This document shows, in pieces, positions 1 to 20,000 of a stretch of DNA of 20,000 nt. Origin of the DNA: an uncultured virus (IMG/VR IMGVR_UViG_3300018080_000160). Its lineage: Duplodnaviria > Heunggongvirae > Uroviricota > Caudoviricetes. The notes below the pieces were generated by a model. It saw nothing but the letters and a program-made list of their open reading frames with translations, was not told where the DNA came from and ran no database searches. Location: the IMG/VR virus record IMGVR_UViG_3300018080_000160, one strand, 5' to 3'. Every line of letters begins with the position of its first letter. The stretch's first letter is position 1. The position numbers and the translations under genes were made by a program.

Positions 1-1
1 C

Positions 2-169
2 CCCTCCCCCGGACTTCCCCTGATCTATATACAGGAAGTATTGCTTGTCAATAATTGGAGCTTTCACTAATTTCCCCGAAATTACATCCCCTGCCTTTGT
101 CTTGACTGAGATTTTCGCGCCAAGCAAAGCAGCAAGCCTTTTTATCTGTAACAATTCGTCTTTTGCCAT
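2..169 (-). CDS. Putative Sm/LSm/Hfq-like fold protein (partial, runs off the window start)
   Basis: Not in the ORF track; translated by hand. ATG at 169 follows GAGGT and gives MAKDELLQIKRLAALLGAKISVKTKAGDVISGKLVKAPIIDKQYFLYIDQGKSGGG. A helix followed by G-x-x-I-x-V-x-T-K-x-G-x-x-I-x-G-x-L resembles the Sm1 motif. Confidence 0.5.
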   Translation of the reverse strand, partial: MAKDELLQIKRLAALLGAKISVKTKAGDVISGKLVKAPIIDKQYFLYIDQGKSGGG

Positions 170-185
170 TTTTTTGACCTCATAT

Positions 186-236
186 AGAATAAAAAAAGTG
201 GTCTATAGCTCCTATGTGAGCGAGCTATATTTAAGT
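186..236 (-). promoter_or_regulatory. Intergenic element: TATA-like TTAAATA, 8-bp inverted repeat and T-tract (terminator and/or promoter-operator)
   Basis: TATAGCTC (204-211) and GAGCTATA (222-229) are separated by 10 nt. On the minus strand TTAAATA overlaps the start of the repeat and a T7 run (191-197) follows it. It lies between the RFC-S stop and the Sm-like RBS. Confidence 0.45.
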
Positions 237-245
237 TTAGCCTAC

Positions 246-1208
246 TTACCTCGCGCTGCTCTTCTTCTTGGCGGTTCGAGTTCGTTTATTCAACTGCGAT
301 GCAATCCACATCACTGCAATCTTTGGATGCGCTCCAACCGCGATTCGGTAATCTGCCTCTGCGATAAGAGCGATTAGATTACGCTTAGCAGATTCGCTAA
401 TCTTACTTTCGATTGTGTAGTCGAGCAACTCGGTCAAGAACTGTCTCTCGCTGACGGAGAGTTTTTCGACCACATCTACAACGAACGAACCAGTTTGGGT
501 GATACTGCTATTGATAGCAATCTTTACGAATTTAGAACACGCTTTTCGAACGCCGCTGCCAAACACAGAGATGTCACCTCCCTTTTCGTACACGCCAAGC
601 ATCTTAATCGCGTGGCGCATCTGACCGTTGGAAGATTTGACGATCTCGTTCAAATCATTGTCATCGTACTCGACTTTTTCTCGTTTGGCCACCTCCTTCA
701 AGCGTTCAATTATCGCGTCGTCCTCGATGGGTCGAAATCTGGCAATGAAGCAACGGTCAAGTATAGCTGGGTGAATCTTTGATTCGTCATTTGCAGTGAA
801 TAGACAAAGGACATTCCGCGATCTGGTTTCTAAATCTCGACGAAATCCTTGCTGTGCTGCCGTACTCATATTATCGATCTCCTCACCCACGAAAATCTTA
901 CGCCTACCACTCGTAAAGCAAGCAGTAGACATAAATTTCGTAAACGGGCCACGGAGATTGTCTATTCTACCGTCTTTGGAAGCATTCACTTCCATAAAAT
1001 CGCGCTCGCCAACGGAAAACGATTTGCGTATCACGTTAATACAGCTCGTCTTGCCCGTACCCGGCGGCCCTACAAATAGAACATGAGGCATCTTCTCTCT
1101 CGGGTCGTTTTTCTCCTTTTCGACTAATACCCTCAATCTTTTCAAGACTTTCTCGTTCCCTTTCAAGTCTTTCCACGAACGGGGCCTGTATCTAACTTCA
1201 AGACTCAT
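246..1208 (-). CDS. rfcS: Replication factor C small subunit-like clamp loader (AAA+)
   Basis: RFC boxes are visible: RYRPRSWKDLKG, PHVLFVGPPGTGKTS (Walker A), EVNASKDGRID, GEEIDNMSTAAQQGFRR, ANDESKIHPAILDRC (SRC-like) and GQMRHAI. Length is 320 aa. Confidence 0.92.
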   Translation of the reverse strand: MSLEVRYRPRSWKDLKGNEKVLKRLRVLVEKEKNDPREKMPHVLFVGPPGTGKTSCINVIRKSFSVGERDFMEVNASKDGRIDNLRGPFTKFMSTACFTSGRRKIFVGEEIDNMSTAAQQGFRRDLETRSRNVLCLFTANDESKIHPAILDRCFIARFRPIEDDAIIERLKEVAKREKVEYDDNDLNEIVKSSNGQMRHAIKMLGVYEKGGDISVFGSGVRKACSKFVKIAINSSITQTGSFVVDVVEKLSVSERQFLTELLDYTIESKISESAKRNLIALIAEADYRIAVGAHPKIAVMWIASQLNKRTRTAKKKSSAR

Positions 1209-1768
1209 TTTTGTTTCTCCTTTTTTTCTGATATTTCTGCTAAGTAACGCATCTTTTCGTCGATAAGCACTTCCAAATCTTTAAATTGGGAGAGCTTCTC
1301 GTCAACTTCTATTTTTACATCAATTAATACATTCAAAAGTCTATCAATGTCTATTAACTCTATCTTTTTAGTAATAACAGCAACATTTGCATCACAAGGC
1401 AGCCCAGATTCGATAGTTTTTACCATACTTTCGATTTTGTTAACTCCAGTCTGCGAACGAAACCACTCGTGCGGAATCTGCAAGATTAGGAGCTGCTTCT
1501 TTATTTGACTTCTCGCAAGAAAAATCTGGTCAAGAGTAAAATGATTTTTACAGTTATGACAAAGGTATTGGGGAGATAGAGGAACAGTAGGTTGTGCAAC
1601 ACTCTTCTGTGCTATCTTAATTGTGCTTGAACTCCCACATAAGGGACATTCAGGCGATTTTGGTGGTTGGAACTTGTGATTACAGTTCGGACACACGAAT
1701 ATCTGAGATACTGGGTCGAAATGGGCTAAGCCGCTACACATTGGACATAAATCTACTTTGTTCGAAAT
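1205..1768 (-). CDS. Double Zn-ribbon protein with a C-terminal coiled-coil; start probably ATT at 1768 rather than ATG at 1741
   Basis: CPNC, CPLC and CHNC are in the track ORF. Extending upstream in frame gives ISNKVDLCPMC, which completes a fourth CxxC. GGGGGT lies 7 nt before the ATT and an in-frame TGA at 1772-1774 bounds it. Confidence 0.7.
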   Translation of the reverse strand: MSNKVDLCPMCSGLAHFDPVSQIFVCPNCNHKFQPPKSPECPLCGSSSTIKIAQKSVAQPTVPLSPQYLCHNCKNHFTLDQIFLARSQIKKQLLILQIPHEWFRSQTGVNKIESMVKTIESGLPCDANVAVITKKIELIDIDRLLNVLIDVKIEVDEKLSQFKDLEVLIDEKMRYLAEISEKKEKQK

Positions 1769-2868
1769 ATGTCAAACCCCCCGCGTTTTTTGCTGCGTTT
1801 TTTCGATGTTCGTTTTTTAGGTTTTCTGCGCTTGGCGGTTTTCTTTTTCACGGTTGCTTTCTTGTCTTTTAGATTCCATTTCCGTCGCGTTGTAGTATCT
1901 GGGGTGACAATGTGAATCTTTTGAGGGATTATACTGAATGCAACTGTGGCCATTATCATTTTCTTTTTTGCAACATAAACGAACATCGAGATTTTATCGA
2001 CCACTTCGCGGTTATGTGCGTTAAGATTCTGTTCGGCGAGGTATATAACCAAAGTGGTTAGATTGATTTTCTGCTCTTTCAGAATTGCGTACACTCTCTG
2101 TCTGTCTGTGTTTATCAATACTTGCCCTACAATGTCTTTCACGCGCATCTGCTTGACTTCGTTCCTACTCGTGGCTCCATACTTCAAGATTTGGATTCCT
2201 TTGTAAAGTGGGTACATCTTAGCCGCTTTTTTGATAATCTTAACTGAAAGATTCGGGAAAAGATGTGTTAGAACAGCGGTACGAGTCGTCTCATTAGCCT
2301 CCTTAAACTCTATCACCTCTGCATTCAAGGAGATTTCTTTTTTACGGAGTTTGTAGGTTCTTTTCAACATCTTCGGAGCTATCCGCGTGATAATAATACA
2401 TGGAACGCGACAAGCATCCATCAACTCATTCAACTGCAGCATTGTTTGTTTATTGAACTTATCGAGCGAATCTACCACGACAATCTTTGGTTTGCCAATG
2501 AGGGTTGAATACCCAACTTCCTGAAAGAGTTCTTTAATTTTCTTTCGTGCCAAATCAACAAACACAAGTTCATGCGTGTTTTTGAATTTCTCGTTCACAA
2601 AATAAGATTTCCCAGTTCCTTGCGGCCCGGAAAGGATAACTAAACGGTTTTGGTACACCGCACGAATAATTCTCGCTCTCTGCTCGGAGTTACCTAAATA
2701 AAATATGCTTTCGTCCGCGTAAATCTGATCTTCTATTGAATCTCGCAAGAACGGGTAATACTTGTAGAGTATTGGGATTATATCTACGCTTTCTCCCGTT
2801 TTTTCGAGAGTTTCGAACAAGTCGAATTGGTTTGCTTTCAAGTGTTTGAAAAACATTTTTAATTTCAT
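1753..2868 (-). CDS. Divergent RFC large subunit-like AAA+ ATPase with a basic C-terminal tail
   Basis: VILSGPQGTGKS (Walker A), KPKIVVVDSLD (Walker B-like) and VPCIII. It is one gene away from RFC-S and ends in a K/R-rich tail followed by GGFDIF, the position of the archaeal RFC-L PIP box. Start set at ATG 2868, 7 nt after GGAGG. Confidence 0.7.
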   Translation of the reverse strand: MKLKMFFKHLKANQFDLFETLEKTGESVDIIPILYKYYPFLRDSIEDQIYADESIFYLGNSEQRARIIRAVYQNRLVILSGPQGTGKSYFVNEKFKNTHELVFVDLARKKIKELFQEVGYSTLIGKPKIVVVDSLDKFNKQTMLQLNELMDACRVPCIIITRIAPKMLKRTYKLRKKEISLNAEVIEFKEANETTRTAVLTHLFPNLSVKIIKKAAKMYPLYKGIQILKYGATSRNEVKQMRVKDIVGQVLINTDRQRVYAILKEQKINLTTLVIYLAEQNLNAHNREVVDKISMFVYVAKKKMIMATVAFSIIPQKIHIVTPDTTTRRKWNLKDKKATVKKKTAKRRKPKKRTSKKRSKKRGGFDIFRTK

Positions 2869-3350
2869 TACCAGTCCTCCCATAGTCGTTCTAACAATTT
2901 CTCTTTTGATTTTTGCTTTCTGGTGAATTCTGCTATCTGTTGTTGAACCACCGAGTCTAAATATGTCCTTACTGGGTCTGATATTGTATCGAATGCAAGC
3001 GTCCCCTCCACTTCATCTGTCGTGTAAAGCCCGACCCTACTCACAATCATCATATCATCAATTATAGTAGATTTACCGTCCTTTTCGAGGCGTAATGTTA
3101 ATGGGTCGCGGTTCATTATGTTTCTACACAACAGAACTTCTTGTAAATCGTCTACTTCTACTATAATTCTATATCGAGGTGATCCTTCTGTTTTGAAATA
3201 CTGTTTGCGTTCACCATTAGGTTCCATAATAACAACAGGAACATGCTGCGTCTCAGTCACCACTGTCATACTGCGTACAGAAACGGATATTTCCTCTCCT
3301 CTATCTTTAAAATCTACAAACAAATTACTTTCTGTGCCAGTGTTTGTCAA
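2868..3350 (-). CDS. Hypothetical protein (160 aa)
   Basis: Overlaps both neighbours in the leftward array and has a GGGAGG RBS; no recognisable motif. Confidence 0.65.
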   Translation of the reverse strand: MTNTGTESNLFVDFKDRGEEISVSVRSMTVVTETQHVPVVIMEPNGERKQYFKTEGSPRYRIIVEVDDLQEVLLCRNIMNRDPLTLRLEKDGKSTIIDDMMIVSRVGLYTTDEVEGTLAFDTISDPVRTYLDSVVQQQIAEFTRKQKSKEKLLERLWEDW

Positions 3351-3768
3351 AGGAATCCTCCCAAATTAGATTTAAATCAAAATTGTCATCACGACAAAGA
3401 CTATGGAAGAGCTGTTCGCTTTTACAAAAGATTTTGGTTGTATAGCAGCTATACGCTTTTTCTTGCAGTATGGTAGCAAAATTTAACACCACCACGTCGC
3501 TCGCGTACATTGCAGAGATAACCCACATATCCTCCTTCTTCCACGCATTTGCTATGCAGATTTTCGATTTATTGTGCTTGTTTTCATTGAACAAGTTTGC
3601 TGTGAATGCGTTGCGAATCCGAACTACAGCAAAGAAAGTGTAGAACGGTTTCCGTCCGTCCCAATCTTCGTATTCCTTTATACGTGCATTGAAAATCTTT
3701 AGATCGGAAATTGGGACGTGGGTAGTTTGCATCACGAAGGTGAGCCGGAATTGCTGCATGTTTATCAT
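3325..3768 (-). CDS. Hypothetical protein (147 aa), first gene of the leftward array
   Basis: ATG-started ORF filling the space between the divergence point and the next gene; no recognisable motif. Confidence 0.55.
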   Translation of the reverse strand: MINMQQFRLTFVMQTTHVPISDLKIFNARIKEYEDWDGRKPFYTFFAVVRIRNAFTANLFNENKHNKSKICIANAWKKEDMWVISAMYASDVVVLNFATILQEKAYSCYTTKIFCKSEQLFHSLCRDDNFDLNLIWEDSFDKHWHRK

Positions 3769-3770
3769 AA

Positions 3771-3803
3771 TGTGTCACAACCGTGTGTCACATTTGTGAC
3801 ACA
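3771..3803. repeat. Three copies of the palindromic 9-mer TGTG(T/A)CACA
   Basis: TGTGTCACA at 3771-3779 and 3784-3792; TGTGACACA at 3795-3803. Confidence 0.9.
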
Positions 3804-3815
3804 AAAGGTTTTAAT
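3803..3815. promoter_or_regulatory. Putative archaeal BRE-TATA promoter at the divergence point, possibly bidirectional
   Basis: AAAAGGTTTTAAT on + is a purine-rich BRE-like stretch plus TTTTAA, and it reads TTAAAA on -. It sits about 40 nt from the first start codon on each side and next to the repeats. Confidence 0.55.
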
Positions 3816-3854
3816 GCTCAACAACTATCTACTGTATTAGCACACAACAATTTA

Positions 3855-4100
3855 ATGTTTGAGGTGTTGAAACTGCCAAAAAAGAATTTTGAGATCAATC
3901 TCGAAAACTTCCCGAATCACTTGCTGCGGATGCGTGGACACGCGAGGCGGAAGATGCCTTCGGTTCCAGTTCCGTATATGTCGCTAACGGAGCATCTGGA
4001 CGGGAAAACGACGGATCTTCCAGAGATTCCGATCTACATAAAGAAGCACGAAGGTCAGACTCTTATGATTGCAGTGCTTCCAAGCGAAGAAGAGGTATGA
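3855..4100 (+). CDS. Small hypothetical protein, weak AbrB/SpoVT-like pattern
   Basis: First gene of the rightward array. Start is ATG 3855 or CTG 3873, 6 nt after GAGGTG. PSVPVP...L.EHL...IPIYIKKHEGQTLMIAVLP loosely fits a swapped-hairpin fold. The ORF is likely real; the fold call is weak. Confidence 0.5.
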   Translation: MFEVLKLPKKNFEINLENFPNHLLRMRGHARRKMPSVPVPYMSLTEHLDGKTTDLPEIPIYIKKHEGQTLMIAVLPSEEEV

Positions 4101-4103
4101 TAA

Positions 4104-5588
4104 ATGCCGCCGAAAAAGAAAACAAGCAAAAAGCCCGCCAAGAAAAAGGCGAAGAAGACTGCTAAGCGTAAAGCAACGAAGAAACCTTCTAAATCTAAAT
4201 CAAACGGGAGTGATATGGTTATTGACATATCCTTCCTTGAGGAGGGTGACTGGGCAAAGGTTAATATGAGCCAGTCCGAGCTTGTTGCTGAACTGGAGCA
4301 GGTATGGGAGGCTGAGAGTATTTTGCGTCCGCAAGTTAAGAAAAACAACCCGAAGCTCTTTGAGCGAAAGGTTCTGTCCACTTTTGAGGGCAGAATGCGG
4401 CGGAAGCTCGCATCTACAGCACAAGCAGGTAACGAATCTTGTTACATCTTCGGGATGTCGATGCCATTCGACCCATACGCTGCGATGGCTGGCAAGTGTA
4501 TGAACGAGTACCAGAAAGATCCGACTGGTGCGATGAATAAGTTCGTGAAAACTCGCAAAAACAAACGCGGAAAACGAGAGGTTTACCCAATCTTCTACCC
4601 GACCTACGCAAAAGACACACGAGACCGAATCGGTAAGGAAATCAAAGGTACATCGTGGATGACTTCAATCGTCGGTGTTTGGGGGCCACAAGATGCGAAA
4701 AAGACTAAACCGTTCGTTACAATCGCTGGAGGCAGCTTCGGAGACGAGCATGTAAGTCTAAAGTGCCCCAACTGCGGAAACGAGTCAGTTTTCAAGATTT
4801 GCCCCGATTGTGGAACAAAAAAAGCGTTTGTCCTCCCGGAGATTATGAAAAGGATGTTCCATCCCTGTTCGTTTGACATGCGCGTAAAGGTAGATGACCA
4901 AGGCAACGAAACAATCGCATGGACGAAGCAAACCGTCCCGAAACTTAAAGATAACCCCACGGAAAAACAGATGGACATCTGGGGGTTGCTTGAAGGGAAC
5001 AAGGTTCTGCGCGGACACAGAATAACTACCAAGTCAGTGCTTAGCACCTACAAGAAATACAAGAACAACCGTAACTGGTGGGTGTGGATCTCGTGTGAGG
5101 TTGTCCGTGTTATCCCTAACGAGGACAAGAAAGGCAACAAAAAAATCATCGTGAGTGACGAACACTTCTCTTTGATGGATTCAAACGGTCGAGTCCGCGA
5201 GGGAATCACGGTGCGTCTCCCTCCTCACATTTGGGAACACCAGATGAGTGGTAAGATTGGTCAAGGTTCCTCGATTATTGTTGTTGGTAAAGTAGATGGG
5301 TTCAAGGGCAATGACGGTACGTTCATCACTTACCTCGAAGCGTGGGGTATTTGGGGAGTCCCCGGTCTCGTGAATGTGCCTCCGAAAGTCGAAAACGACC
5401 TCGAAGAAGAAGAGGGATTCGAAATCTCTGATGAGGAATCTTTAGAGAATATTGAACTCGGAGATGGAGAAACGGAAGATTTTGACGACGATGACGAGGA
5501 ATGGGATGAGAGTTTTAATGACGAGGAAGCATCCGACGAAGACGACGATGACGAATTAGATGTTAATCTTGAAGAGGAGTGGGAGTAA
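4104..5588 (+). CDS. Putative single-stranded DNA-binding protein (OB fold + Zn ribbon) with basic N-tail and acidic C-tail
   Basis: Zn ribbon CPNCG..CPDCG. OB-like strands WVWISCEVVRV / IIVSDE / ITVRLP / GQGSSIIVVGKV / LEAWGIW. The D/E-rich tail ends in EEEWE, as is typical of SSBs. GAGGT RBS. Confidence 0.65.
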   Translation: MPPKKKTSKKPAKKKAKKTAKRKATKKPSKSKSNGSDMVIDISFLEEGDWAKVNMSQSELVAELEQVWEAESILRPQVKKNNPKLFERKVLSTFEGRMRRKLASTAQAGNESCYIFGMSMPFDPYAAMAGKCMNEYQKDPTGAMNKFVKTRKNKRGKREVYPIFYPTYAKDTRDRIGKEIKGTSWMTSIVGVWGPQDAKKTKPFVTIAGGSFGDEHVSLKCPNCGNESVFKICPDCGTKKAFVLPEIMKRMFHPCSFDMRVKVDDQGNETIAWTKQTVPKLKDNPTEKQMDIWGLLEGNKVLRGHRITTKSVLSTYKKYKNNRNWWVWISCEVVRVIPNEDKKGNKKIIVSDEHFSLMDSNGRVREGITVRLPPHIWEHQMSGKIGQGSSIIVVGKVDGFKGNDGTFITYLEAWGIWGVPGLVNVPPKVENDLEEEEGFEISDEESLENIELGDGETEDFDDDDEEWDESFNDEEASDEDDDDELDVNLEEEWE

Positions 5589-5753
5589 TTGGGTAAGTAT
5601 AACAAAGGGAAACAAAAAGGAATCAATCTCCTCTTCAAGAAACGCTTCGACAGCATCATGAAAGACATCCGCCGACACGAGAAGGCGATAGACGAGATAA
5701 TTTCCAATATAAAAGATTTGTGGGAGGAGGTTGGCCATCGTGGAAATACTTAA
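5589..5753 (+). CDS. Small hypothetical helical protein (54 aa)
   Basis: Translated by hand from a TTG directly after the SSB stop: MGKYNKGKQKGINLLFKKRFDSIMKDIRRHEKAIDEIISNIKDLWEEVGHRGNT. It fills the gap and overlaps the next gene. Confidence 0.55.
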   Translation: MGKYNKGKQKGINLLFKKRFDSIMKDIRRHEKAIDEIISNIKDLWEEVGHRGNT

Positions 5754-6735
5754 TCTCGAAGACAAAGATGCAGATGAAATCCTCGATCTATTTCAAAAGA
5801 TGGAGGAATTTGGCGACATCAAACGATTTGTTATCGTTCTCTGGGGGCCTGAAAAGGTGGGTAAAACACATGTAGCTCTAACAGCATCGCGTTTAATCCC
5901 CAAAAACCCTACTATATCTTCAGAGCTCCGCGAGATGCTGAAGGATGGTCGCGTAATTCTCGGAGAGCCTGTCTGGCTTATCGACACGGAAGGTAAATCC
6001 CCAAAATTAAAAGATAAGTTCACTGGGAGAGATATTCGCATTCTTCCGGTGTGGGTTCCCGATGAAAACAACCCACTGAAGCCAGATGTGGAGAAATCTT
6101 TGAAGAATTTGATGTATGCTCTCATTGCTATGTCAAAACAGCCGAAAGGGACTCTCGTTATCGACTCGTGGACTGACCCTAACTCGTGGGCAAGAAAGCT
6201 CGTGCAAAAGAAACTGGTCGAAAACGAAGCAGAAGGCTGGGAACTCGGGGAACTCATCCCACTAAAGCCTACAGACTACGAGGGCCGCAATGACATCATG
6301 GACTTCATTCTCTATTACCTTCAAAATTACATCAAAAACATGCACGTAATCTTGACGGTGCGCGGAGAACCGAAGTGGGTCACGAACTCGGATGGAAAGC
6401 GGCCACATCCCGGCCCGCTTGCCAAGAAATGCAATAAAAAGACAATGTTCTTCGCAGATGTCGAAATCAAGCTCCTCAAGAATTTGTACGATGATGGAAC
6501 TGCTGAGCGCGTTGGAAGTTTGATTACAAGTGAGTTTGACGATGATGACCCTATTTCAAAAGATTGGGTAAACCCGAATATACCAAAAATCATCGACGAC
6601 CTCAAGGACTTCGCCATCAAGAAGCGGAAGATGACGGAGAAGAAGAAGCCCAAGAAGAAGAAGGCCAAGAAAAAGAAAACGACAAAGAGGAAATCCAAAA
6701 AGAAATCCAAACGACCAGTAAAACGAGGCGGTTAG
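5731..6735 (+). CDS. P-loop ATPase, AAA_24/Sak4-like (RecA superfamily), with a K-rich C-tail
   Basis: VLWGPEKVGKT (Walker A), WLIDTEG, TLVIDSWT (Walker B), HVILT and FFADVEIKL. It lies just downstream of the SSB-like gene. Confidence 0.75.
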   Translation: MAIVEILNLEDKDADEILDLFQKMEEFGDIKRFVIVLWGPEKVGKTHVALTASRLIPKNPTISSELREMLKDGRVILGEPVWLIDTEGKSPKLKDKFTGRDIRILPVWVPDENNPLKPDVEKSLKNLMYALIAMSKQPKGTLVIDSWTDPNSWARKLVQKKLVENEAEGWELGELIPLKPTDYEGRNDIMDFILYYLQNYIKNMHVILTVRGEPKWVTNSDGKRPHPGPLAKKCNKKTMFFADVEIKLLKNLYDDGTAERVGSLITSEFDDDDPISKDWVNPNIPKIIDDLKDFAIKKRKMTEKKKPKKKKAKKKKTTKRKSKKKSKRPVKRGG

Positions 6736-6736
6736 A

Positions 6737-7741
6737 TTGGCAAAAAAGAAGAAAGCTGCAAAGAAGAAGGCGGCCAAGAAAAAGGCGGCCAAGAAAAAAT
6801 CTGCACGGAAGAAGAATGTGGTCGAGTTAGAAGGCCCGAAATCTAAAATTCTTAATCTTTTTTCCGTGCTGGGAATAAAAGGCAAGGAGTTGGACTCGAA
6901 TATGAGTTCAAAAGCTCTACTCACCGAAGGATTCGTTCTTGAAGTGGAAAACGACATCGCATCTTTTTATTCTGGGAACACGGTGAAGGGGATGAATGTC
7001 TTGCTTTATAAGATGGTGGAGCTTGACGGGATAACCGTTAAGTCCGAGGGGCTATGTTATTGTGCCGCAAACGACGAACTCCTTTCTCGCATATACAAGT
7101 GTGAGTCTGGAAAGATGCGAATCTCTATCGGAGATAAGAAAATCGAGATGGTCGATTCCGCGAACCACAAATCCGGATTCACGCAGACCTCAAAGGATGA
7201 AGGCGAAGATCGGGTGAAAGGATGGAAAGATATAATCGAGGACAACATCGGTCAACACACTCGCGGGTATAAATGGTCTGATGCAGATGTAATTGCTTCT
7301 ATGGTAGTTGATGCAGAGGAACTGGCTAAAATCGTCAAATCTGCTGAGATTATGCGTGTAGTGTCTTATCCCATCAAGATTCGGGACGGAAAGGTTATTT
7401 TCTCCGTGGAAAACGAATTCGCGTGGGAATCTCGTGAAATCGAACCTGACGATATTGAGATGGAAGAGGAGGAGTACGAGGCGAATTATCATACAGGGGT
7501 AGATGCTGCACTTAGCAATCTCGAAGAGGAAATCGTCATCAATATGTGTCGGCATCCGGAGGGTGTCGCGGATGTGATGGCCATCTCCAAAGTGGAGGAC
7601 AAATCTGTAACGGTGTTTTACCTTATCGCAATATCGGAAGACGATCTCGACGAACCCGAAGAAGATTTGGGTGAAGAGGAATTCGAGGAAGATTTGGGTG
7701 AAGAGGAACTCGAAGAAGCGGAGGAAGAGAACGATGGTTGA
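6737..7741 (+). CDS. Divergent PCNA-like sliding clamp with (KKKAA)n N-tail and acidic C-tail
   Basis: A core of about 270 aa has a two-domain alpha/beta pattern (ASMVVDAEELAKIVKSAE, IKIRDGKVIFSVE, EEYEANY, VTVFYLIAI; compare PCNA C-terminal YLAP). RFC and PolB are in the same module. TTG start after GAGGCG. Confidence 0.65.
   Translation: MAKKKKAAKKKAAKKKAAKKKSARKKNVVELEGPKSKILNLFSVLGIKGKELDSNMSSKALLTEGFVLEVENDIASFYSGNTVKGMNVLLYKMVELDGITVKSEGLCYCAANDELLSRIYKCESGKMRISIGDKKIEMVDSANHKSGFTQTSKDEGEDRVKGWKDIIEDNIGQHTRGYKWSDADVIASMVVDAEELAKIVKSAEIMRVVSYPIKIRDGKVIFSVENEFAWESREIEPDDIEMEEEEYEANYHTGVDAALSNLEEEIVINMCRHPEGVADVMAISKVEDKSVTVFYLIAISEDDLDEPEEDLGEEEFEEDLGEEELEEAEEENDG
6746..6805 (+). repeat. 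Four 15-bp in-frame tandem units encoding KKKAA x3 and KKKSA
   Basis: aagaagaaagctgca / aagaagaaggcggcc / aagaaaaaggcggcc / aagaaaaaatctgca. Confidence 0.9.
7661..7708 (+). repeat. 27-bp-period duplication in the acidic tail (EDLGEEE x2)
   Basis: gaagatttgggtgaagaggaa occurs at 7661-7681 and 7688-7708. Confidence 0.9.
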
Positions 7742-8000
7742 TGTTCCATACCCAGAAGGAGAAGTGAGATGGTACGGAGGGAGTCACAAAGTCAGAATTC
7801 TCCCGGCTGAATCTTTCAGTGAATGTAAACAACCTTATACTGGCTACACTTCGAAAAAGATTGAATCGCGGTGTTACCCGTGCTTGGTGATGGAAGATTT
7901 CATGACCACGCGCAGCGGGAAGGTATTCAAAGCTGGGGATAAAGTGGTTCTGGCAAAGTGTCTTCTGCCGAGGAAACATCGAAGTCAGTGGAAACGGTGA
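7734..8000 (+). CDS. Hypothetical protein (88 aa)
   Basis: ATG at 7734 overlaps the end of the clamp gene and follows GGAGG; MVDVPYPEGEVRWYGG... Confidence 0.55.
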   Translation: MVDVPYPEGEVRWYGGSHKVRILPAESFSECKQPYTGYTSKKIESRCYPCLVMEDFMTTRSGKVFKAGDKVVLAKCLLPRKHRSQWKR

Positions 8001-8611: not shown

Positions 8612-9461
8612 GTACAAGGAATCTTTGCTTCGGTGGGCTGGCGGGAAGTACCACGCCTTATCAAGAATCATCCCTCTCATCAACCCACGCAAGAATTCCT
8701 GCGAGATTTTCTGCGGATCTGCAGTTATAACTCTCAATCTACCTCTTCTGAGGAGAAGCAAATCGGAAGCGATTGTTGACATCAATTCCCAAATTTCCAA
8801 TTTTTTTCGAGTTATTAGAGATAAACCAGACGAATACATGGAAAGGATGAAATACACGTTCTCAGGGGATGATTGGGTTGAGGAACTCGAAGCTCAGTCG
8901 GACGATGTTAGTCGTGCTATGTGTTTTTACCTCAAGAACCGCAATTCTTTTGCCGGGTTTGGCGATTTTGCTACCCGTGAAGGGATTGTCTACTCCTTCG
9001 GTAACAACCCAATCATAAAGGACGTGACTTGGTGGGCTGAACGTCTTCGGAATGTGCGGATTTATCGTTTAGACTTTAGAGATGCACTCAAACGGGTAAA
9101 CGGACTTGACACTGATTGGGTTCTCATTTTAGATCCCCCTTATCCTAAAGCTGGGAAGAAAGGGGAGCGTATGTATTGCGGGGAAACCGAGAACGGGAAG
9201 GAAGACCTCGGATTCACCGAAAAGGACACGCGAGATTTATGTAAATTACTTCACGAATCACATCACGAAATCTTTCTTACATATCCAGATAAACCACTTA
9301 TAAGAGATTTATACTCGGATTGGCACATCCGGGAAGCTCGGTGGCACTATCATGCTGCTCCGGGTGAGAAGAAGAACACAAAAACGGAATTGTTTCTATC
9401 AAATAGACCTTTTAAAAAATACTCGGTAAATAAAGTAAGTTTTGATAAATGGAGTGAATGA
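8604..9461 (+). CDS. DNA adenine methyltransferase (D12/Dam-like class)
   Basis: LRWAGGK, EIFCGSA (motif I), DINSQISNFF, LILDPPY (motif IV) and ELFLSN. Confidence 0.92.
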   Translation: MSRYKESLLRWAGGKYHALSRIIPLINPRKNSCEIFCGSAVITLNLPLLRRSKSEAIVDINSQISNFFRVIRDKPDEYMERMKYTFSGDDWVEELEAQSDDVSRAMCFYLKNRNSFAGFGDFATREGIVYSFGNNPIIKDVTWWAERLRNVRIYRLDFRDALKRVNGLDTDWVLILDPPYPKAGKKGERMYCGETENGKEDLGFTEKDTRDLCKLLHESHHEIFLTYPDKPLIRDLYSDWHIREARWHYHAAPGEKKNTKTELFLSNRPFKKYSVNKVSFDKWSE

Positions 9462-12004: not shown

Positions 12005-14720
12005 ATACAGACGCAGACTCTTGGAAATCACTAACTTCTCACCCCATTTTTATGTTGAAGGCGACCAGCGCGGCGTGAATAGCCCGTACATCAAGAAGGC
12101 GTACTATGATAGGTACGTAAATCGAAACTTGCAAGGCGAACGTGTCACAAAAATTGAAACTAATATCTCGTCAGATGTTCGACATCTTCGGGATAATGAA
12201 TTTGATGGCATGCAAACCTACCAAGCAGCTATTCTACTTCCCCGAACCTTTCTCATCGCTAACAGAATCACTTCTGGATTCCATATTGACGTGAACCGTG
12301 TCACAAAAGAGTCACATAGATACAACGGATCTCTGATATACAAGACAAGAACAGAACACCTGAAACCAAGCTCAAAAATCTATGTAGCTCCCCGAATTCA
12401 ATACGGCGACTTCGAGATTGACAACTCGGACGGTTCTCTGGCAGATGCTACAGTTGGAGACCTCCCAATCACCATGTACTCTTGGATAGATTCTTACGAT
12501 CCATTCAAACCGAAGTCTATCGTGTGGCATCCAAAGTGGGCTAACAAACAACCGACACTCGTAAAGAAGGAATACATCTACGAATACACGGGAGAAAAGC
12601 ACGAGTGGCACATACATTGTTTCCCAAACGAAATTGACATGCTCCATTACCTTATCAAAGTCATAGGTCTGAAAGAAGATCCGGACATTATGACTGGCTG
12701 GAACTTCACGGAGTTTGATATGACTTATCTAATCAACCGAATTCGTCATATTAACGCAACATCTCTCGAATCACATAAACCGGAAAATTTCATAGATATT
12801 CGAAGAATTTCTCCGTTATGTAGACTTGCTGACTATCGCGGATGGAGTTCCAGCAACGCGAAGGTTTCCGCTAAAAACGGTAGAGTGTATATACCGGGCC
12901 GAGAAATCCTCGATATGTATAAAGCTTACCGTAAAATGGTTGACCCAGCAGAAGGAAAGAAAGATTCCTATACTCTTGATAATATTGGATTTACCGAGTT
13001 GAAGTTAAGGAAGATTGTTCACGAAGGCAGTGTCGGTCAGTTGTGGATGCGAGACCCGCTCGCCGCGCTAATCTATAATATGCGAGACTCGGAGATATGT
13101 TATTTTCTTGACAATGTAAAAGGAATCTTTAATAACTTCGACACACAACGCAGAGAAGTAGGTTGCTTGTGGAGAGATGTCCTATCTCCGGCTATCGTCT
13201 TAGGTACTGACCAGACTCGGGCTGCCAACAAGAAAGGCATCGTATTACCTACTACTTACGTGCCAGACAAAAATAAGAAGAAAAAATTCAAAGGAGCCAT
13301 CGTTCTCCCAGCAACGGTCGGACTGCACTACAATGTTCTTGCATTTGACCTCAAATCTTTATATCTAAATCTAATCGACCAGTGGAATATATCCCCCGAT
13401 GTCTTCGTGGACACATTATCGAATTTGAAGAAGAAGCACAATAATAGCCAAAAAATCTTATCATCATACGTGCAAAACTATATTCGGACTCCTAACGGGT
13501 TGTTGTGGGAGAAAAGAAAAGATGGCTTTGCAAGAGAACGGGTTAGGCATTATCAAATAGAGCGACAGAAGATTCGGGATAAACACGCGCAGCTAAAAGA
13601 GATCAACGGGGCTGATAATATCGAAGTGAAAAACCTCGACACGCGCCAAAAAGCCTACAAAACATTCAGTTTGGTCTTCTGGGGAGTATTCGGACACGAA
13701 GGAAGCGAACTCTACTGGGAACCGATGGCTGAGGCTGTTACATCTTCGGGACGTACAGTAATAAATTTCACGAGAGATAGAGTCGAGAGTACCTTAATGC
13801 AGAAAAAACTCGAACTACAATTCGGAGAAGTCAAGGATCTTCGTGTAGTTTACGGTGACACTGATTCAGTCTATGTGCTTGTTCAATTTACTGACGAAAT
13901 GCTAAATCAAGACATGGATTTTATGTGTGATGTTGCAGATTACATCTCGAAATTCTTGAATGATGGTTACCCGTTACTCGCAAAGAAGTATAATTGTCCG
14001 ACAAATTGCATGCACATCCGTTGCGAGAAGATTTACAAGTCCTACTTCATGACCGTGACCGGGAAAGGAACTGCCGGGAAGAAGCGGTACGTGGGATTAA
14101 AAGTAAGGGAGTTACTTCAAGAGAGAGGGAAGGAGAGATGGATTGTCACGAATAAAGAGGACATCAAAGGCTTCGAGTCCAGACGCAGCGATAACTCTAA
14201 AGTTGGTAAGGACTTCCAGAAATCTATATTCAGTATTCTAATGCACGGAAAAGGGATTAAAGATATCAGAAGAAAACTCAAACATTTAATTAGAAAAACG
14301 CAAATGGAATTTTTCTCTGGGAACCACGCACTTACTGATATTGCAATACCGAAAGGTATATCCAGACCGCTTGGTTCATACGGTAAGTTAAATCCTCATA
14401 GTGGGCGAAGAAGTAGTATTCCTATTCATGTCCGAGCAGCTAAATATTCTAACCAGAACTTCAAGACGAACTACAATGGTGGGTCAAAGGTGTATTATAT
14501 CTACGTGGAAGATGTCCCTCGAATCTACCCAAAGACAGATGTGATTGCTTTCCAGTACGACCACGAAGTTCCGAAAGGTGTAGTGGTAGATTATAATAAG
14601 ATGTGGGAGAAACAATTTATAAAGAAAGCAGAGGCTATATTTCGCGGGCTGAATACTACCTACAAGCAGATCGTTGGAGGAGTGTTCAAAAATGCATTTG
14701 ATTCGTGGGATTCTAACTAA
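11904..14720 (+). CDS. polB: Family B DNA polymerase with 3'-5' exonuclease
   Basis: ExoI YGDFEID, ExoII GWNFTEFD, ExoIII YNMRD; motif A FDLKSLYLN, motif B QKAYKTFSLVFWG, motif C YGDTDS; KKRY and KGFESRRSD. Start set at ATG 11904 (GGAGG upstream; VDF..P..F.W.R..FSPHFYV matches the archaeal PolB N-terminus). Confidence 0.96.
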   Translation: MSSKILRGVHQSVDFLNYKNAPRMFVWYRDARDKYRRRLLEITNFSPHFYVEGDQRGVNSPYIKKAYYDRYVNRNLQGERVTKIETNISSDVRHLRDNEFDGMQTYQAAILLPRTFLIANRITSGFHIDVNRVTKESHRYNGSLIYKTRTEHLKPSSKIYVAPRIQYGDFEIDNSDGSLADATVGDLPITMYSWIDSYDPFKPKSIVWHPKWANKQPTLVKKEYIYEYTGEKHEWHIHCFPNEIDMLHYLIKVIGLKEDPDIMTGWNFTEFDMTYLINRIRHINATSLESHKPENFIDIRRISPLCRLADYRGWSSSNAKVSAKNGRVYIPGREILDMYKAYRKMVDPAEGKKDSYTLDNIGFTELKLRKIVHEGSVGQLWMRDPLAALIYNMRDSEICYFLDNVKGIFNNFDTQRREVGCLWRDVLSPAIVLGTDQTRAANKKGIVLPTTYVPDKNKKKKFKGAIVLPATVGLHYNVLAFDLKSLYLNLIDQWNISPDVFVDTLSNLKKKHNNSQKILSSYVQNYIRTPNGLLWEKRKDGFARERVRHYQIERQKIRDKHAQLKEINGADNIEVKNLDTRQKAYKTFSLVFWGVFGHEGSELYWEPMAEAVTSSGRTVINFTRDRVESTLMQKKLELQFGEVKDLRVVYGDTDSVYVLVQFTDEMLNQDMDFMCDVADYISKFLNDGYPLLAKKYNCPTNCMHIRCEKIYKSYFMTVTGKGTAGKKRYVGLKVRELLQERGKERWIVTNKEDIKGFESRRSDNSKVGKDFQKSIFSILMHGKGIKDIRRKLKHLIRKTQMEFFSGNHALTDIAIPKGISRPLGSYGKLNPHSGRRSSIPIHVRAAKYSNQNFKTNYNGGSKVYYIYVEDVPRIYPKTDVIAFQYDHEVPKGVVVDYNKMWEKQFIKKAEAIFRGLNTTYKQIVGGVFKNAFDSWDSN

Positions 14721-17500: not shown

Positions 17501-18373
17501 ATGAAAGAACTGAAATTGGTAGCTGATGTATTAGGCTTCAATGTAAGCCCGTCATCTTTGAATACATTCGCCTATTGTCCGTACCAGTGGAAGATAGTTT
17601 ATCTAAATGGAGTTCGTGGGCCGGACAACTTATTTGCAGCCGCAGGATCTACCTTCCACAAGATTTTTGAAGTTGCATCTAAGAACTACGACAAGAACCT
17701 TTTCTTGAAGGAGAGAGCCACACATGTATACAATCTATGTATGGCTGTCCCTCCGGGTGAATGGAAACAACTAATGTCTCCTATTCTCAAAATGTATGCT
17801 ATAGCGGAGAACAAAAGATTCGAAAGAATTCTAAAATTCGTGGATGACGAAGACGAAGCGTGGGATTACTTCAACCCAATAGAAAACGAGAGGAAATACG
17901 TGTTAGATGATGAAGGGATAACCTTCATTGCGGATAGGCAGGTTATGGTTCCTGCTGGATATGCAGGAAATAGAGAGGAAGTTATGGGTGTTATCGACTT
18001 CAAACCAAAAGGAGACGAATACAGCACAACTCTAAATCGCCAACTAACTGCTATGGCTATTCACCTTAAAGATGATAGTGGAAACACACCGGTAGTTGGT
18101 GCTTACTTTTACCGAACAGGAGTAGAGCTTCCTATGAAGAAAGTTCATCACGCTTCTGTGCGAGGAATAAAAAATATCGCAGAGAAGATGTTGAATTGTC
18201 TAAAATGGGGTAGATTTAAGAAGAATCTTGGTTGGGGATGTGCTTGGTGTAGTTTCCAATTGGTATGTAGAGCGAAAATTCCACTCGAAACGTTCTTGGA
18301 GAATAAAAGGAACAGAAACGAAGTAGTAGGAGGTATATTCGATAATGTCAACCACAAAAATACATCTATTTGA
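17501..18373 (+). CDS. Cas4/AddB-like PD-(D/E)XK exonuclease with a 4-Cys cluster
   Basis: SPSSLNTFAYCP, GSTFH, E.E, IADR, IDFK, RQL and C-terminal CAWCSFQLVC. Confidence 0.85.
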   Translation: MKELKLVADVLGFNVSPSSLNTFAYCPYQWKIVYLNGVRGPDNLFAAAGSTFHKIFEVASKNYDKNLFLKERATHVYNLCMAVPPGEWKQLMSPILKMYAIAENKRFERILKFVDDEDEAWDYFNPIENERKYVLDDEGITFIADRQVMVPAGYAGNREEVMGVIDFKPKGDEYSTTLNRQLTAMAIHLKDDSGNTPVVGAYFYRTGVELPMKKVHHASVRGIKNIAEKMLNCLKWGRFKKNLGWGCAWCSFQLVCRAKIPLETFLENKRNRNEVVGGIFDNVNHKNTSI

Positions 18374-19433: not shown

Positions 19434-19592
19434 ATGTGTGAGTATCTGGAAAAATCTAAGGAATCCCCGGAAGTGATTAAATCTTGGGGAATTGTCGGGT
19501 ATTGTACCTACTTTAAGGCGAATGTCACTGGGCGAGTTTGCCCGTGTTCTAAGAAAAAGAAACGAAAAATAACAACATTTGATAGGATGTAA
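19434..19592 (+). CDS. Small 4-Cys protein with a basic tail (52 aa)
   Basis: Translated by hand: MCEYLEKSKESPEVIKSWGIVGYCTYFKANVTGRVCPCSKKKKRKITTFDRM. Confidence 0.55.
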   Translation: MCEYLEKSKESPEVIKSWGIVGYCTYFKANVTGRVCPCSKKKKRKITTFDRM

Positions 19593-19593
19593 A

Positions 19594-20000
19594 ATGCCAA
19601 AAATAGTAATTATTAAAGATACAGACGGTTGTGTTAAGGCTGAGCCTGCTGCAATTGATAACAAAGATCCGATGGCTTTCTTCACCTATACATTCACTAA
19701 CACACAAACTGGAGAAGTTCGGAAGTTTCTGGCTCCTTGTACGTATAACTCTTTTAGAAATTGCTTCACAAGTAACGTTTACCACGAAAGAAGAGCGTCT
19801 AACTGCCCATTGCTTTTCATGTATAATAATAAAATCTATTGGCGGGATGGTATATGGACGCTAAAGGTGCGCGTAGCAAGAAAAAGAAAAAAAGAAAAAA
19901 AGAAAGCGAGAAGTAATTTGAAGGCATTACGGATAGGCGGTAAGGTACACTTACACCCTTACATTGCTCTCGTTGACTTTTGCTCTCCCATACTCTCGAA
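19594..20000 (+). CDS. Hypothetical protein (partial, open to the window end)
   Basis: Translated by hand. ATG at 19594 follows the previous stop and there is no stop for 135 codons: MPKIVIIKDTDGCVKAEPAA...RKRKKEKKKARS... Confidence 0.55.
   Translation, partial: MPKIVIIKDTDGCVKAEPAAIDNKDPMAFFTYTFTNTQTGEVRKFLAPCTYNSFRNCFTSNVYHERRASNCPLLFMYNNKIYWRDGIWTLKVRVARKRKKEKKKARSNLKALRIGGKVHLHPYIALVDFCSPILS

Follow-up and report, generated by a model that had tools for sequence, protein, structure and literature searches.

The stretch of DNA considered here, 20,000 nucleotides of IMG/VR record IMGVR_UViG_3300018080_000160 (below, the window), comes from an uncultured virus-like contig and is a dense block of DNA-metabolism genes, in which several predicted replisome proteins carry long lysine-rich or acidic tails at their ends. 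The window is part of ~79-kb contigs, and an independent assembly of a sediment-metagenome run, which may be the source sample, yielded a 78,730-bp contig with 0 differences over window positions 1-8000; the window occupies about 25.3-45.3 kb of that contig. All genes visible in these 20 kb out of ~79 kb belong to DNA metabolism, and the tail counts given below cover the 24 proteins of the window. The tailed proteins are the small subunit (RFC-S) and a large-subunit-like protein (RFC-L) of a replication factor C clamp loader, a putative single-stranded DNA-binding protein (SSB), an AAA_24 ATPase that bears the provisional label “Sak4-like,” and a PCNA-like clamp. According to family searches, the window also encodes Dam, Dcm, a dUTPase, a family-B polymerase (PolB), an archaeal Hjc-like resolvase, a PD-(D/E)XK nuclease and a primase-like protein.

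The first-pass annotation of this DNA, made from the letters alone, had described basic tails on five replisome proteins. All the tails that it quoted were located in the translations, where it had placed them, and its count of 25 lysine or arginine (K/R) residues in 38 aa for the AAA_24 protein was exact; the long C-terminal tails rich in aspartate and glutamate (D/E) that it ascribed to the SSB and the clamp are also present. The charged tracts are as follows.

249..287, minus strand: basic C-terminal tail of RFC-S, KRTRTAKKKSSAR, 13 aa with 7 K/R (gene 246-1208).
1756..1869, minus strand: basic linker of the RFC-L-like protein, residues 339-369 with 19 K/R in 31 aa, followed by the terminal GGFDIFRTK (gene 1753-2883).
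4104..4211, plus strand: basic N-terminal tail of the putative SSB, 17 K/R in the first 36 aa (gene 4104-5588).
5421..5585, plus strand: acidic C-terminal tail of the putative SSB, 33 D/E in 55 aa, with the tip NLEEEWE.
6619..6732, plus strand: basic C-terminal tail of the AAA_24 (Sak4-like) protein, 25 K/R in 38 aa, ending in KRGG (gene 5731-6735).
6737..6817, plus strand: basic N-terminal tail of the PCNA-like clamp, (KKKAA)n, 16 K/R in 27 aa (gene 6737-7741).
7634..7738, plus strand: acidic C-terminal tail of the PCNA-like clamp, 23 D/E in 35 aa.
19864..19938, plus strand: internal basic tract of orf140p, 12 K/R in 20 aa (gene from 19579, running off the window edge).

The tails are real, they are terminal, and they lie far beyond what chance would produce. 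At least 12 K/R within 20 aa occur in five of the 24 window proteins, whereas shuffling the residues inside each protein 2000 times gave a mean of 0.02 such proteins and a maximum of 1; this density is reached in none of the open reading frame (ORF) sets from seven other loci (three relatives and four unrelated viral loci). An equally dense acidic stretch (at least 12 D/E in 20 aa) is found in two of the 24 proteins, against a shuffle mean of 0.03. The highest K/R count per 20 aa is 14 in RFC-L, 13 in the SSB-like protein, 15 in the AAA_24 protein and 13 in the clamp. The net charges of the tails are +17 at the N-terminus and -33 at the C-terminus of the SSB-like protein, and +16 and -23, respectively, in the clamp. 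Within the window the tails thus sit on the clamp, the clamp loader, the putative SSB and the recombinase-like ATPase, and the catalytic enzymes are free of them: no 20-aa stretch of PolB, of orf597 (the “helicase” of the annotation), of the primase-like protein or of Dam and Dcm holds more than 8 K/R, in agreement with the annotation, which had named the polymerase, helicase, primase and methyltransferases as tail-less. The set of five basic tails itself needed revision. Four are dense (13-15 K/R in 20 aa), but that of RFC-S is weak, with a maximum of 8 K/R in any 20-aa window, and a sixth tract, in orf140p, had been missed. The latter protein (19579-19998, plus strand) has no family match and no homologue in the retrieved loci. 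Its basic tract contains an 8-bp tandem repeat at 19881-19905 and is followed by RIGG.

The conservation of the tails was assessed in relatives found through the clamp. An exhaustive HMMER search with the clamp core returned four homologues (P0125-P0128, 29-43% identity). With the clamp alignment, three syntenic loci were then found in metagenomes: L005 (20.8 kb out of a contig of 65 kb), L006 and L007. The conservation counts therefore rest on three loci and two further clamps, the distinct clamps being those of L005, L006 (including P0126), L007 (identical to P0125), P0127 and P0128. In BLASTP comparisons with the ORFs of the relatives, identity was 48% for RFC-S, 36% for RFC-L, 50% and 41% for the SSB-like protein, 56%, 55% and 51% for the AAA_24 protein, 40%, 38% and 32% for the clamp, 50% and 52% for PolB, and 62% for orf597. 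Other searches gave no true relative locus. This holds for viral contigs searched with the clamp or PolB protein, for metagenome contigs searched with the PolB alignment and for the genome contig searches; viral contigs searched with the PolB alignment gave only PolBs at 22-25% identity (L001-L003), and with the AAA_24 alignment only a high-GC phage (L008), whose AAA_24 protein is 26% identical and has no tail. A further hit of the clamp alignment in viral contigs (L004) was rejected as a false positive, the match lying inside a 762-aa ORF that by eye is a DNA methylase.

Comparison with these relatives divides the tails into two classes. The clamp's acidic C-terminal tail is present in all five distinct relatives, with a length of 35-70 aa across the clamp family, and that of the SSB-like protein (55-80 aa) in both of its relatives, together with a tryptophan-containing tip. 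The AAA_24 homologues all carry a tail rich in lysine, alanine and proline (K/A/P; 3/3), which in the relatives is ~16-20 aa long with a few acidic residues as a cap and reaches at most 9-11 K/R in 20 aa; in the window it extends to 38 aa. RFC-S keeps a short basic tail rich in lysine, proline and serine in its single relative (L005). The RFC-L linker is net positive in both relatives, and its high K/R density is confined to the window. At the N-terminus of the clamp, the relatives show no more than MAKKKSKS, MAKKKKS or MAKVKAK, and in two others a basic start is missing. The SSB-like protein begins with MAKKSKS in L005 and has no basic stretch in L007, so that the window tail is a genome-specific insertion. 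Judged from these alignments, the acidic tails, like the AAA_24 tail, belong to the family as a whole, and the long N-terminal tails and the very high K/R density are recent acquisitions of this genome. The check on homologues that the annotation had proposed was thus passed by RFC-S and AAA_24 and in part by RFC-L, but not by the N-terminal tails of the clamp and the SSB, which in the relatives dwindle to 3-5 lysines or disappear. Acidic ends also occur elsewhere in the relatives: an ERCC4-domain nuclease (L005:3250-4119, minus strand) has 16 D/E in 20 aa at its C-terminus, and a homologue of the winged-helix protein of the window (L007:6827-7267, plus strand) has an acidic tail with 11 of 20.

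The names of the tailed proteins are supported to different degrees. By sequence matches, the product of 246-1208 (minus strand) is a replication factor C small subunit with an AAA+ module, an RFC lid and a C-terminal collar domain: Pfam gives AAA (1.5e-11), RCF1-5-like_lid (5.9e-9) and Rep_fac_C (2.2e-6), and the NCBIfam model of the RFC small subunit matches over nearly the full length (E 5e-54, 183.5 bits, with the equivalog cut-off of 303 not reached). The RFC-L-like protein (minus strand) matches Pfam AAA (E 8.8e-5) and PHROG 168, “clamp loader” (E 9.5e-5), and has no NCBIfam match. In an alignment of the window, L005 and L007 proteins its core ends at PDTxxRRKW, after which a variable, net-positive linker leads to the C-terminus: GGFDIF-RTK in the window, GGFSQF-GKRK in L005 and KSFAW in L007. 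The terminal motif GGF(D/S)(I/Q)F is therefore present in two of the three family members. A complex prediction of the clamp core (6-row alignment) with the C-terminal 40 aa of RFC-L (3-row alignment) gave no verdict (score 0.01, mark 0.32).

The annotation had also pointed out KRGG at the end of two basic tracts. As a shared signature it did not hold: in RFC-L the two glycines belong to GGFxxF, and none of the three AAA_24 relatives keeps KRGG, all of them ending in acidic residues. The same reasons led us to discard the idea that KRGG might serve as a protease site or a ubiquitin-like mark. As a separate observation, two glycines with a nearby aromatic residue occur close to three C-termini of the window, namely RGGFDIF in RFC-L (1756-1782, minus strand), VGGVFKNAF in PolB and VGGIFDNV in the PD-(D/E)XK nuclease (~18320-18370); the motif is not kept in the L005 homologue of the nuclease, and its recurrence may be due to chance.

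The clamp was recognized by structure. In the ESM Atlas model of the exact protein (pTM 0.70), residues 28-295 matched PCNA_N/PCNA_C clusters with TM scores of 0.67-0.75 over 223-252 aligned residues; the matches comprised archaeal PCNA clusters and unnamed viral clusters of 245-273 aa, and both sides of the comparison are predicted models. The protein is thus predicted to have a two-domain clamp fold of ~250 residues, and we accept a PCNA-like fold on the basis of this match and of the RFC and PolB gene context. The RFC-S and RFC-L-like genes beside it are the only hint that the clamp may form an RFC-loaded homotrimeric ring. Sequence methods did not recover the family: no PCNA family was found at E ≤ 1 among the five members, the family profile gave one unrelated hit among PDB sequences (E 0.25), a word-index search of 5.8 billion proteins with the clamp core returned nothing beyond the query, and tblastn of the core against phage genomes gave no match. 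A single-sequence AlphaFold2 model was unusable (pLDDT 34.0). The basic N-terminal tail depends on the start codon, which is a TTG at 6737 with GAGG 8 nt upstream; the public gene call likewise gives 334 aa. A start at the in-frame GTG codon 28, by which the tail would be lost, is unlikely given the GAGG site, the 334-aa public call and the relatives, which begin with MAK... upstream of the equivalent position. The statement in the annotation that a basic N-terminal tail is missing from cellular PCNA agrees with the size of the structure-matched PCNA-type relatives, whose 245-273 aa leave no room for the tails described here.

Several proteins of the window end in what may be docking peptides for such a clamp. 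Tryptophan occurs within the last 8 residues of six of the 23 complete window proteins, mostly in the pattern hydrophobic-x-x-W with an acidic or small residue after it (binomial p ~0.05): PolB (~14700-14717), Dam (~9440-9458), the SSB-like protein (5565-5585), orf79, orf160 and orf147. The same type of tip is found at the C-termini of PolB, Dam and the DUF6884 protein of L005. The tryptophan is invariant in the three PolBs (the tip of the relatives being Q-V-G-I-L-E-W-G) and is kept in the Dam relatives. From their sequence, these C-termini are candidate clamp-docking tips resembling the PCNA-interacting peptide (PIP), and such a tip on a Dam methylase would be notable.

The 494-aa product of 4104-5588 is harder to name. 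It matched no Pfam (E ≤ 10), PHROG or NCBIfam family; a C-x2-C...C-x2-C zinc ribbon was all that could be detected, and its profile found only zinc-ribbon matches among PDB sequences. A word-index search of 5.8 billion proteins with the core returned nothing beyond the query, and tblastn against phage genomes gave no match. The ESM Atlas model is poor (pTM 0.31) and offers SSB and OB clusters as leads, with whole-query TM scores below 0.4; the single-sequence AlphaFold2 model was unusable (pLDDT 34.8). The architecture is nevertheless suggestive, consisting of a zinc ribbon, a beta-rich core and an acidic tail with a conserved aromatic tip, and the gene lies directly upstream of the AAA_24 gene, an order known from phage ssb and sak4 (PMC5928155). 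On these two grounds we somewhat favor the view that it is a single-stranded DNA (ssDNA)-binding protein. As in SSBs, the acidic C-terminal tail is predicted to be disordered and closes with a conserved terminal peptide, L-E-(E/G)-(E/A)-W-(E/H), found in all three family members. The start, an ATG at 4104 with GAGGT 7 nt upstream, yields the same 494 aa as the public gene call. The SSB-like protein of L007 (2901-4412, plus strand) has a second C-x2-C...C-x2-C pair within its acidic tail. The names “SSB” and “clamp” used in the annotation thus find no support from sequence families; the second is upheld by the match between predicted models, but the first only by weak structural leads.

The AAA_24 protein matches Pfam AAA_24 (PF13479; E 3.7e-4) with 20.8 bits, below the gathering score of 27, and for this reason the label “Sak4-like” for 5731-6735 is provisional. 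It also matches PHROG 1366, of unknown function (E 8.7e-8), and its P-loop GPEKVGKTH is conserved in the family.

Taken together, these data allow us to propose, at about even confidence, that the tails are disordered polyelectrolyte tethers on the non-catalytic organizers of a virus-encoded replisome of archaeal type. The clamp and the putative SSB would be the hubs, with long acidic C-terminal tails in which hydrophobic or aromatic residues are embedded, including the L-E-E-x-W tip of the SSB-like protein; these tails may be compared with partner recruitment by bacterial SSB and T4 gp32 and with the negative surface of PCNA. The basic K/A/P tails of AAA_24, RFC-L and RFC-S would combine non-specific DNA binding with electrostatic docking on the acidic tails. 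In RFC-L, the basic linker would present the terminal GGFxxF, a candidate peptide for binding the clamp, and the positive charge beside it would increase its affinity. All basic elements would have been lengthened in this genome, partly through tandem duplication of 15-bp lysine-coding units, and the lengthening would also have given the clamp and the putative SSB their basic N-terminal tails, and with them longer residence on DNA and head-to-tail self-association. The shared electrostatic system that the annotation had envisaged, for example for nucleoid tethering, competition with host chromatin proteins or condensate-like compartments, is compatible with the data, in which basic and acidic tails occur together, but the five basic tails do not form a single conserved system. 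Since the conserved core consists of the acidic tails of the two hubs, to which the annotation had given second place, and the AAA_24 tail, the idea has to be re-centered on these, away from five equivalent basic tags.

Comparable tails are known from several systems. In Streptomyces TopA, lysine repeats stabilize the TopA-DNA complex and provide processivity, and the repeats are described as ones that “terminate with acidic amino acids” (PMC5714199), which resembles the AAA_24 tails of L005-L007. In Mycobacterium smegmatis, PAKKA repeats of Ku and Hlp modulate DNA binding, and the authors of that report conclude that tails of this type arose more than once, on DNA-binding proteins not related to one another (PMC3553676). 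Like these actinobacterial proteins, the window proteins bear K/A/P-rich, low-complexity terminal extensions on otherwise unrelated DNA-handling proteins of one lineage. The differences are that the window tails are found on a viral clamp, clamp-loader, putative SSB and recombinase-like proteins, that the basic tails are paired with long acidic tails on two hubs, and that tail lengths differ sharply between close relatives.

For the acidic tails, the nearest parallels are SSBs. The last six residues of the phage HK620 SSB are reported to be needed for the binding of Sak4 to SSB-coated ssDNA, the sak4 and ssb genes being neighbors (PMC5928155), and T4 gp32 is described as an OB core with a zinc finger, an acidic C-terminal domain and an N-terminal region for cooperativity (PMC8549804). 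In the SSBs of E. coli and HK620 and in gp32, a disordered acidic tail closes with a short, conserved tip of hydrophobic or aromatic character, through which partners are recruited; the SSB-like protein of the window has a zinc ribbon, an L-E-E-x-W tip and an AAA_24 neighbor in common with this group. It differs in the missing OB or SSB family match, in a longer and more acidic tail (55-80 aa), in a tip other than DDDIPF and in its genome-specific, 36-aa basic N-terminal tail.

The RFC-L terminus can be set beside the PIP box, which is reported at the C-terminus of the archaeal RFC large subunit (PMC7776575). Positive charge flanking a PIP motif tunes affinity for PCNA, the surface of which is negative around the binding pocket (PMC6881253). 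In both cases a short hydrophobic or aromatic motif stands at the extreme C-terminus after a basic, disordered stretch, represented in the window by the K/R linker and GGFDIF. Here the motif lacks the canonical glutamine and the QxxLxxFx spacing, and the clamp adds a 35-70-aa acidic tail; binding is suggested by analogy. With known PCNA clamps the window clamp shares the predicted two-domain fold and a gene position among RFC-S, RFC-L and PolB genes, whereas it gives no sequence hit to Pfam PCNA_N/PCNA_C or to solved structures, even with the family profile, and has a genome-specific basic N-terminal tail and a family-conserved acidic C-terminal tail. As the closest precedents are all electrostatic, our reading is that two hubs with acidic tails, the clamp and the SSB-like protein, are served by AAA_24, RFC-L and RFC-S as clients with basic tails.

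A number of points weigh against the tether model. The proteins of the relatives all stay below 12 K/R in 20 aa, and their clamps, SSB-like proteins and RFC-L do without the long basic tails; these tails are thus dispensable for the basic working of the replisome and could be neutral expansions. The clamp has no sequence-level PCNA match (no Pfam hit at E ≤ 10), and the putative SSB has no detectable OB or SSB family match. GGFxxF departs from the PIP consensus in lacking both its glutamine and its spacing, and is absent in L007. Binding by the tails, their disorder and their affinity for DNA are deduced from sequence and analogy, and the enrichment of tails was read from a window of DNA-metabolism genes only, not from virion or other proteins.

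The strongest alternative is that the lysine tracts are largely neutral low-complexity expansions, in which slippage in purine-rich (AAG/AAA)n sequence lengthened short basic termini, a growth that disordered ends can bear, with little or no added function. Several features of the DNA speak for such an origin. Tandem Repeats Finder detected a 15-bp unit (x2.7) in the AAA_24 basic tail at 6638-6677 and another 15-bp unit (x3.7), coding for (KKKAA)n, in the basic N-terminal tail of the clamp at 6745-6799; the acidic tails have a 27-bp unit (x2.5) in the clamp at 7652-7718 and a 9-bp unit in the SSB-like protein at 5534-5554. The plus-strand block shows positive GC and AT skew, and the coding strand is purine-rich throughout. 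In L005 (9950-9990), the end of the AAA_24 gene (…NGEEEE, stop) and the start of the clamp gene (MAKKKS…) overlap by 20 nt; a single GAA/AAG run gives EEEE to the first protein and, in another frame, KKK to the second, so that composition can follow the DNA. The relatives, moreover, have only MAKKK-type seeds. Local duplication in purine-rich tracts is therefore a real source of the tails, and the repeats, the two-frame run in L005 and the purine-rich strand keep the neutral explanation alive. As the main account of the tracts, however, we consider it unlikely. Of the five expanded tracts, one is in orf140p and four belong to the clamp, the clamp loader, the putative SSB and the recombinase-like ATPase; the other 19 window proteins have none. 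Every tract is in frame and free of stops. The basic tails of the SSB-like protein and RFC-L are not simple repeats (neither the N-terminal tail of the former nor the linker of the latter contains a tandem repeat in the Tandem Repeats Finder output) and mix K/R with proline, threonine, serine and alanine. Finally, the K/A/P composition of the AAA_24 tail persists, though its sequence drifts, across relatives that share no more than 50-55% identity in the core, and this suggests that composition is under selection.

A second alternative gives the charges a collective role: the tails would be a targeting code whose main function, along the lines of the annotation's condensate and tethering ideas, is to gather the replication proteins of the virus in a condensate driven by charge or on the nucleoid of the host. 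The SSB-like protein (+17/-33) and the clamp (+16/-23) are diblock polyampholytes that would be multivalent if they oligomerize as their families do, basic client tails occur alongside, and phase separation has been reported for E. coli SSB, mediated by its disordered linker and C-terminal peptide (10.1101/797431; PMC7584906). The same replisome, though, serves the relatives, whose basic tails are much weaker, and a strict address code would omit the catalytic core, as PolB, the primase-like protein and orf597 are untagged. We hold this explanation to be improbable. The same low standing applies to a specific form of it, an electrostatic assembly code in which the conserved polyacidic tails of the hubs and the polylysine tails borne by the clients, and here by the hubs too, would drive complex coacervation of the replication proteins with DNA, giving a membrane-less replication compartment in a prokaryotic, probably archaeal, host, with tail length tuned rapidly by repeat expansion.

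The gene layout bears on the host and on the two remaining alternatives. Shine-Dalgarno-like motifs (GGAGG, AGGAG, GAGG) lie 5-12 nt 5′ of most starts in the window, several genes have 4-nt overlaps or GTG/TTG starts, indicating operon-type packing, and the best matches of PolB among named viruses are haloarchaeal tailed viruses (~25% identity), its cellular matches including archaea. These features point to a prokaryotic and probably archaeal host. Such tight packing would also suit the view that the lysine tracts act mainly as mRNA, with A-rich, unstructured sequence at starts and junctions promoting initiation or coupling and the peptide being a by-product. All five basic tracts are at gene junctions: those of the clamp and the SSB-like protein follow the start codon, that of AAA_24 precedes the clamp, that of RFC-L precedes a zinc-ribbon gene and that of RFC-S precedes the next gene; in addition, MAKKK-type codons 2-5 are common to the clamps and the L005 SSB-like gene. 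However, tracts of 27-38 codons far exceed an initiation region, the tails contain GCN and CCN codons (alanine and proline), which are not A-rich, the K/A/P character of AAA_24 is conserved at the protein level, and the acidic tails do not fit, which makes this view very improbable. Least credible of all is that the basic tails are nuclear localization signals of a eukaryotic virus replicating in the nucleus, since, despite the archaeo-eukaryotic type of RFC, PCNA and PolB and the PPKKK- and KKKRK-like tracts, which we take to resemble classical signals of this kind, the translation signals, start codons, gene overlaps and PolB matches just described, the presence of Dam, Dcm, an archaeal Hjc-like resolvase and an AAA_24 ATPase, and the absence of most tracts from the relatives all argue against these proteins being made in a nucleated cell.

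Some further features of the locus deserve mention. Three copies of TGTGWCACA (two direct and one inverted) lie at window positions 3771-3803, at the divergent junction of the leftward and rightward gene blocks, and the minimum of the cumulative GC skew coincides with them; they are a candidate operator or origin-associated element. In the relatives, a gene for a 6-pyruvoyl-tetrahydropterin synthase of PTPS/QueD type stands between AAA_24 and the clamp (L007:5413-5775, plus strand), and a DUF6884 gene adjoins RFC-S (L005:5574-6074, minus strand). Neither gene was found among the predicted proteins of the window. In the relatives these genes may indicate base-modification chemistry.

In conclusion, if the tether model proposed here is true, a small and almost unsampled virus family would show a replisome wired by charge alone, with short docking motifs adding specificity. 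The clamp is its most unusual piece, since a 35-70-aa acidic tail is conserved in this viral clamp family, unlike in the PCNA-type relatives of 245-273 aa. The family would also show how fast such charge wiring can evolve, one lineage having lengthened all of its basic tails.

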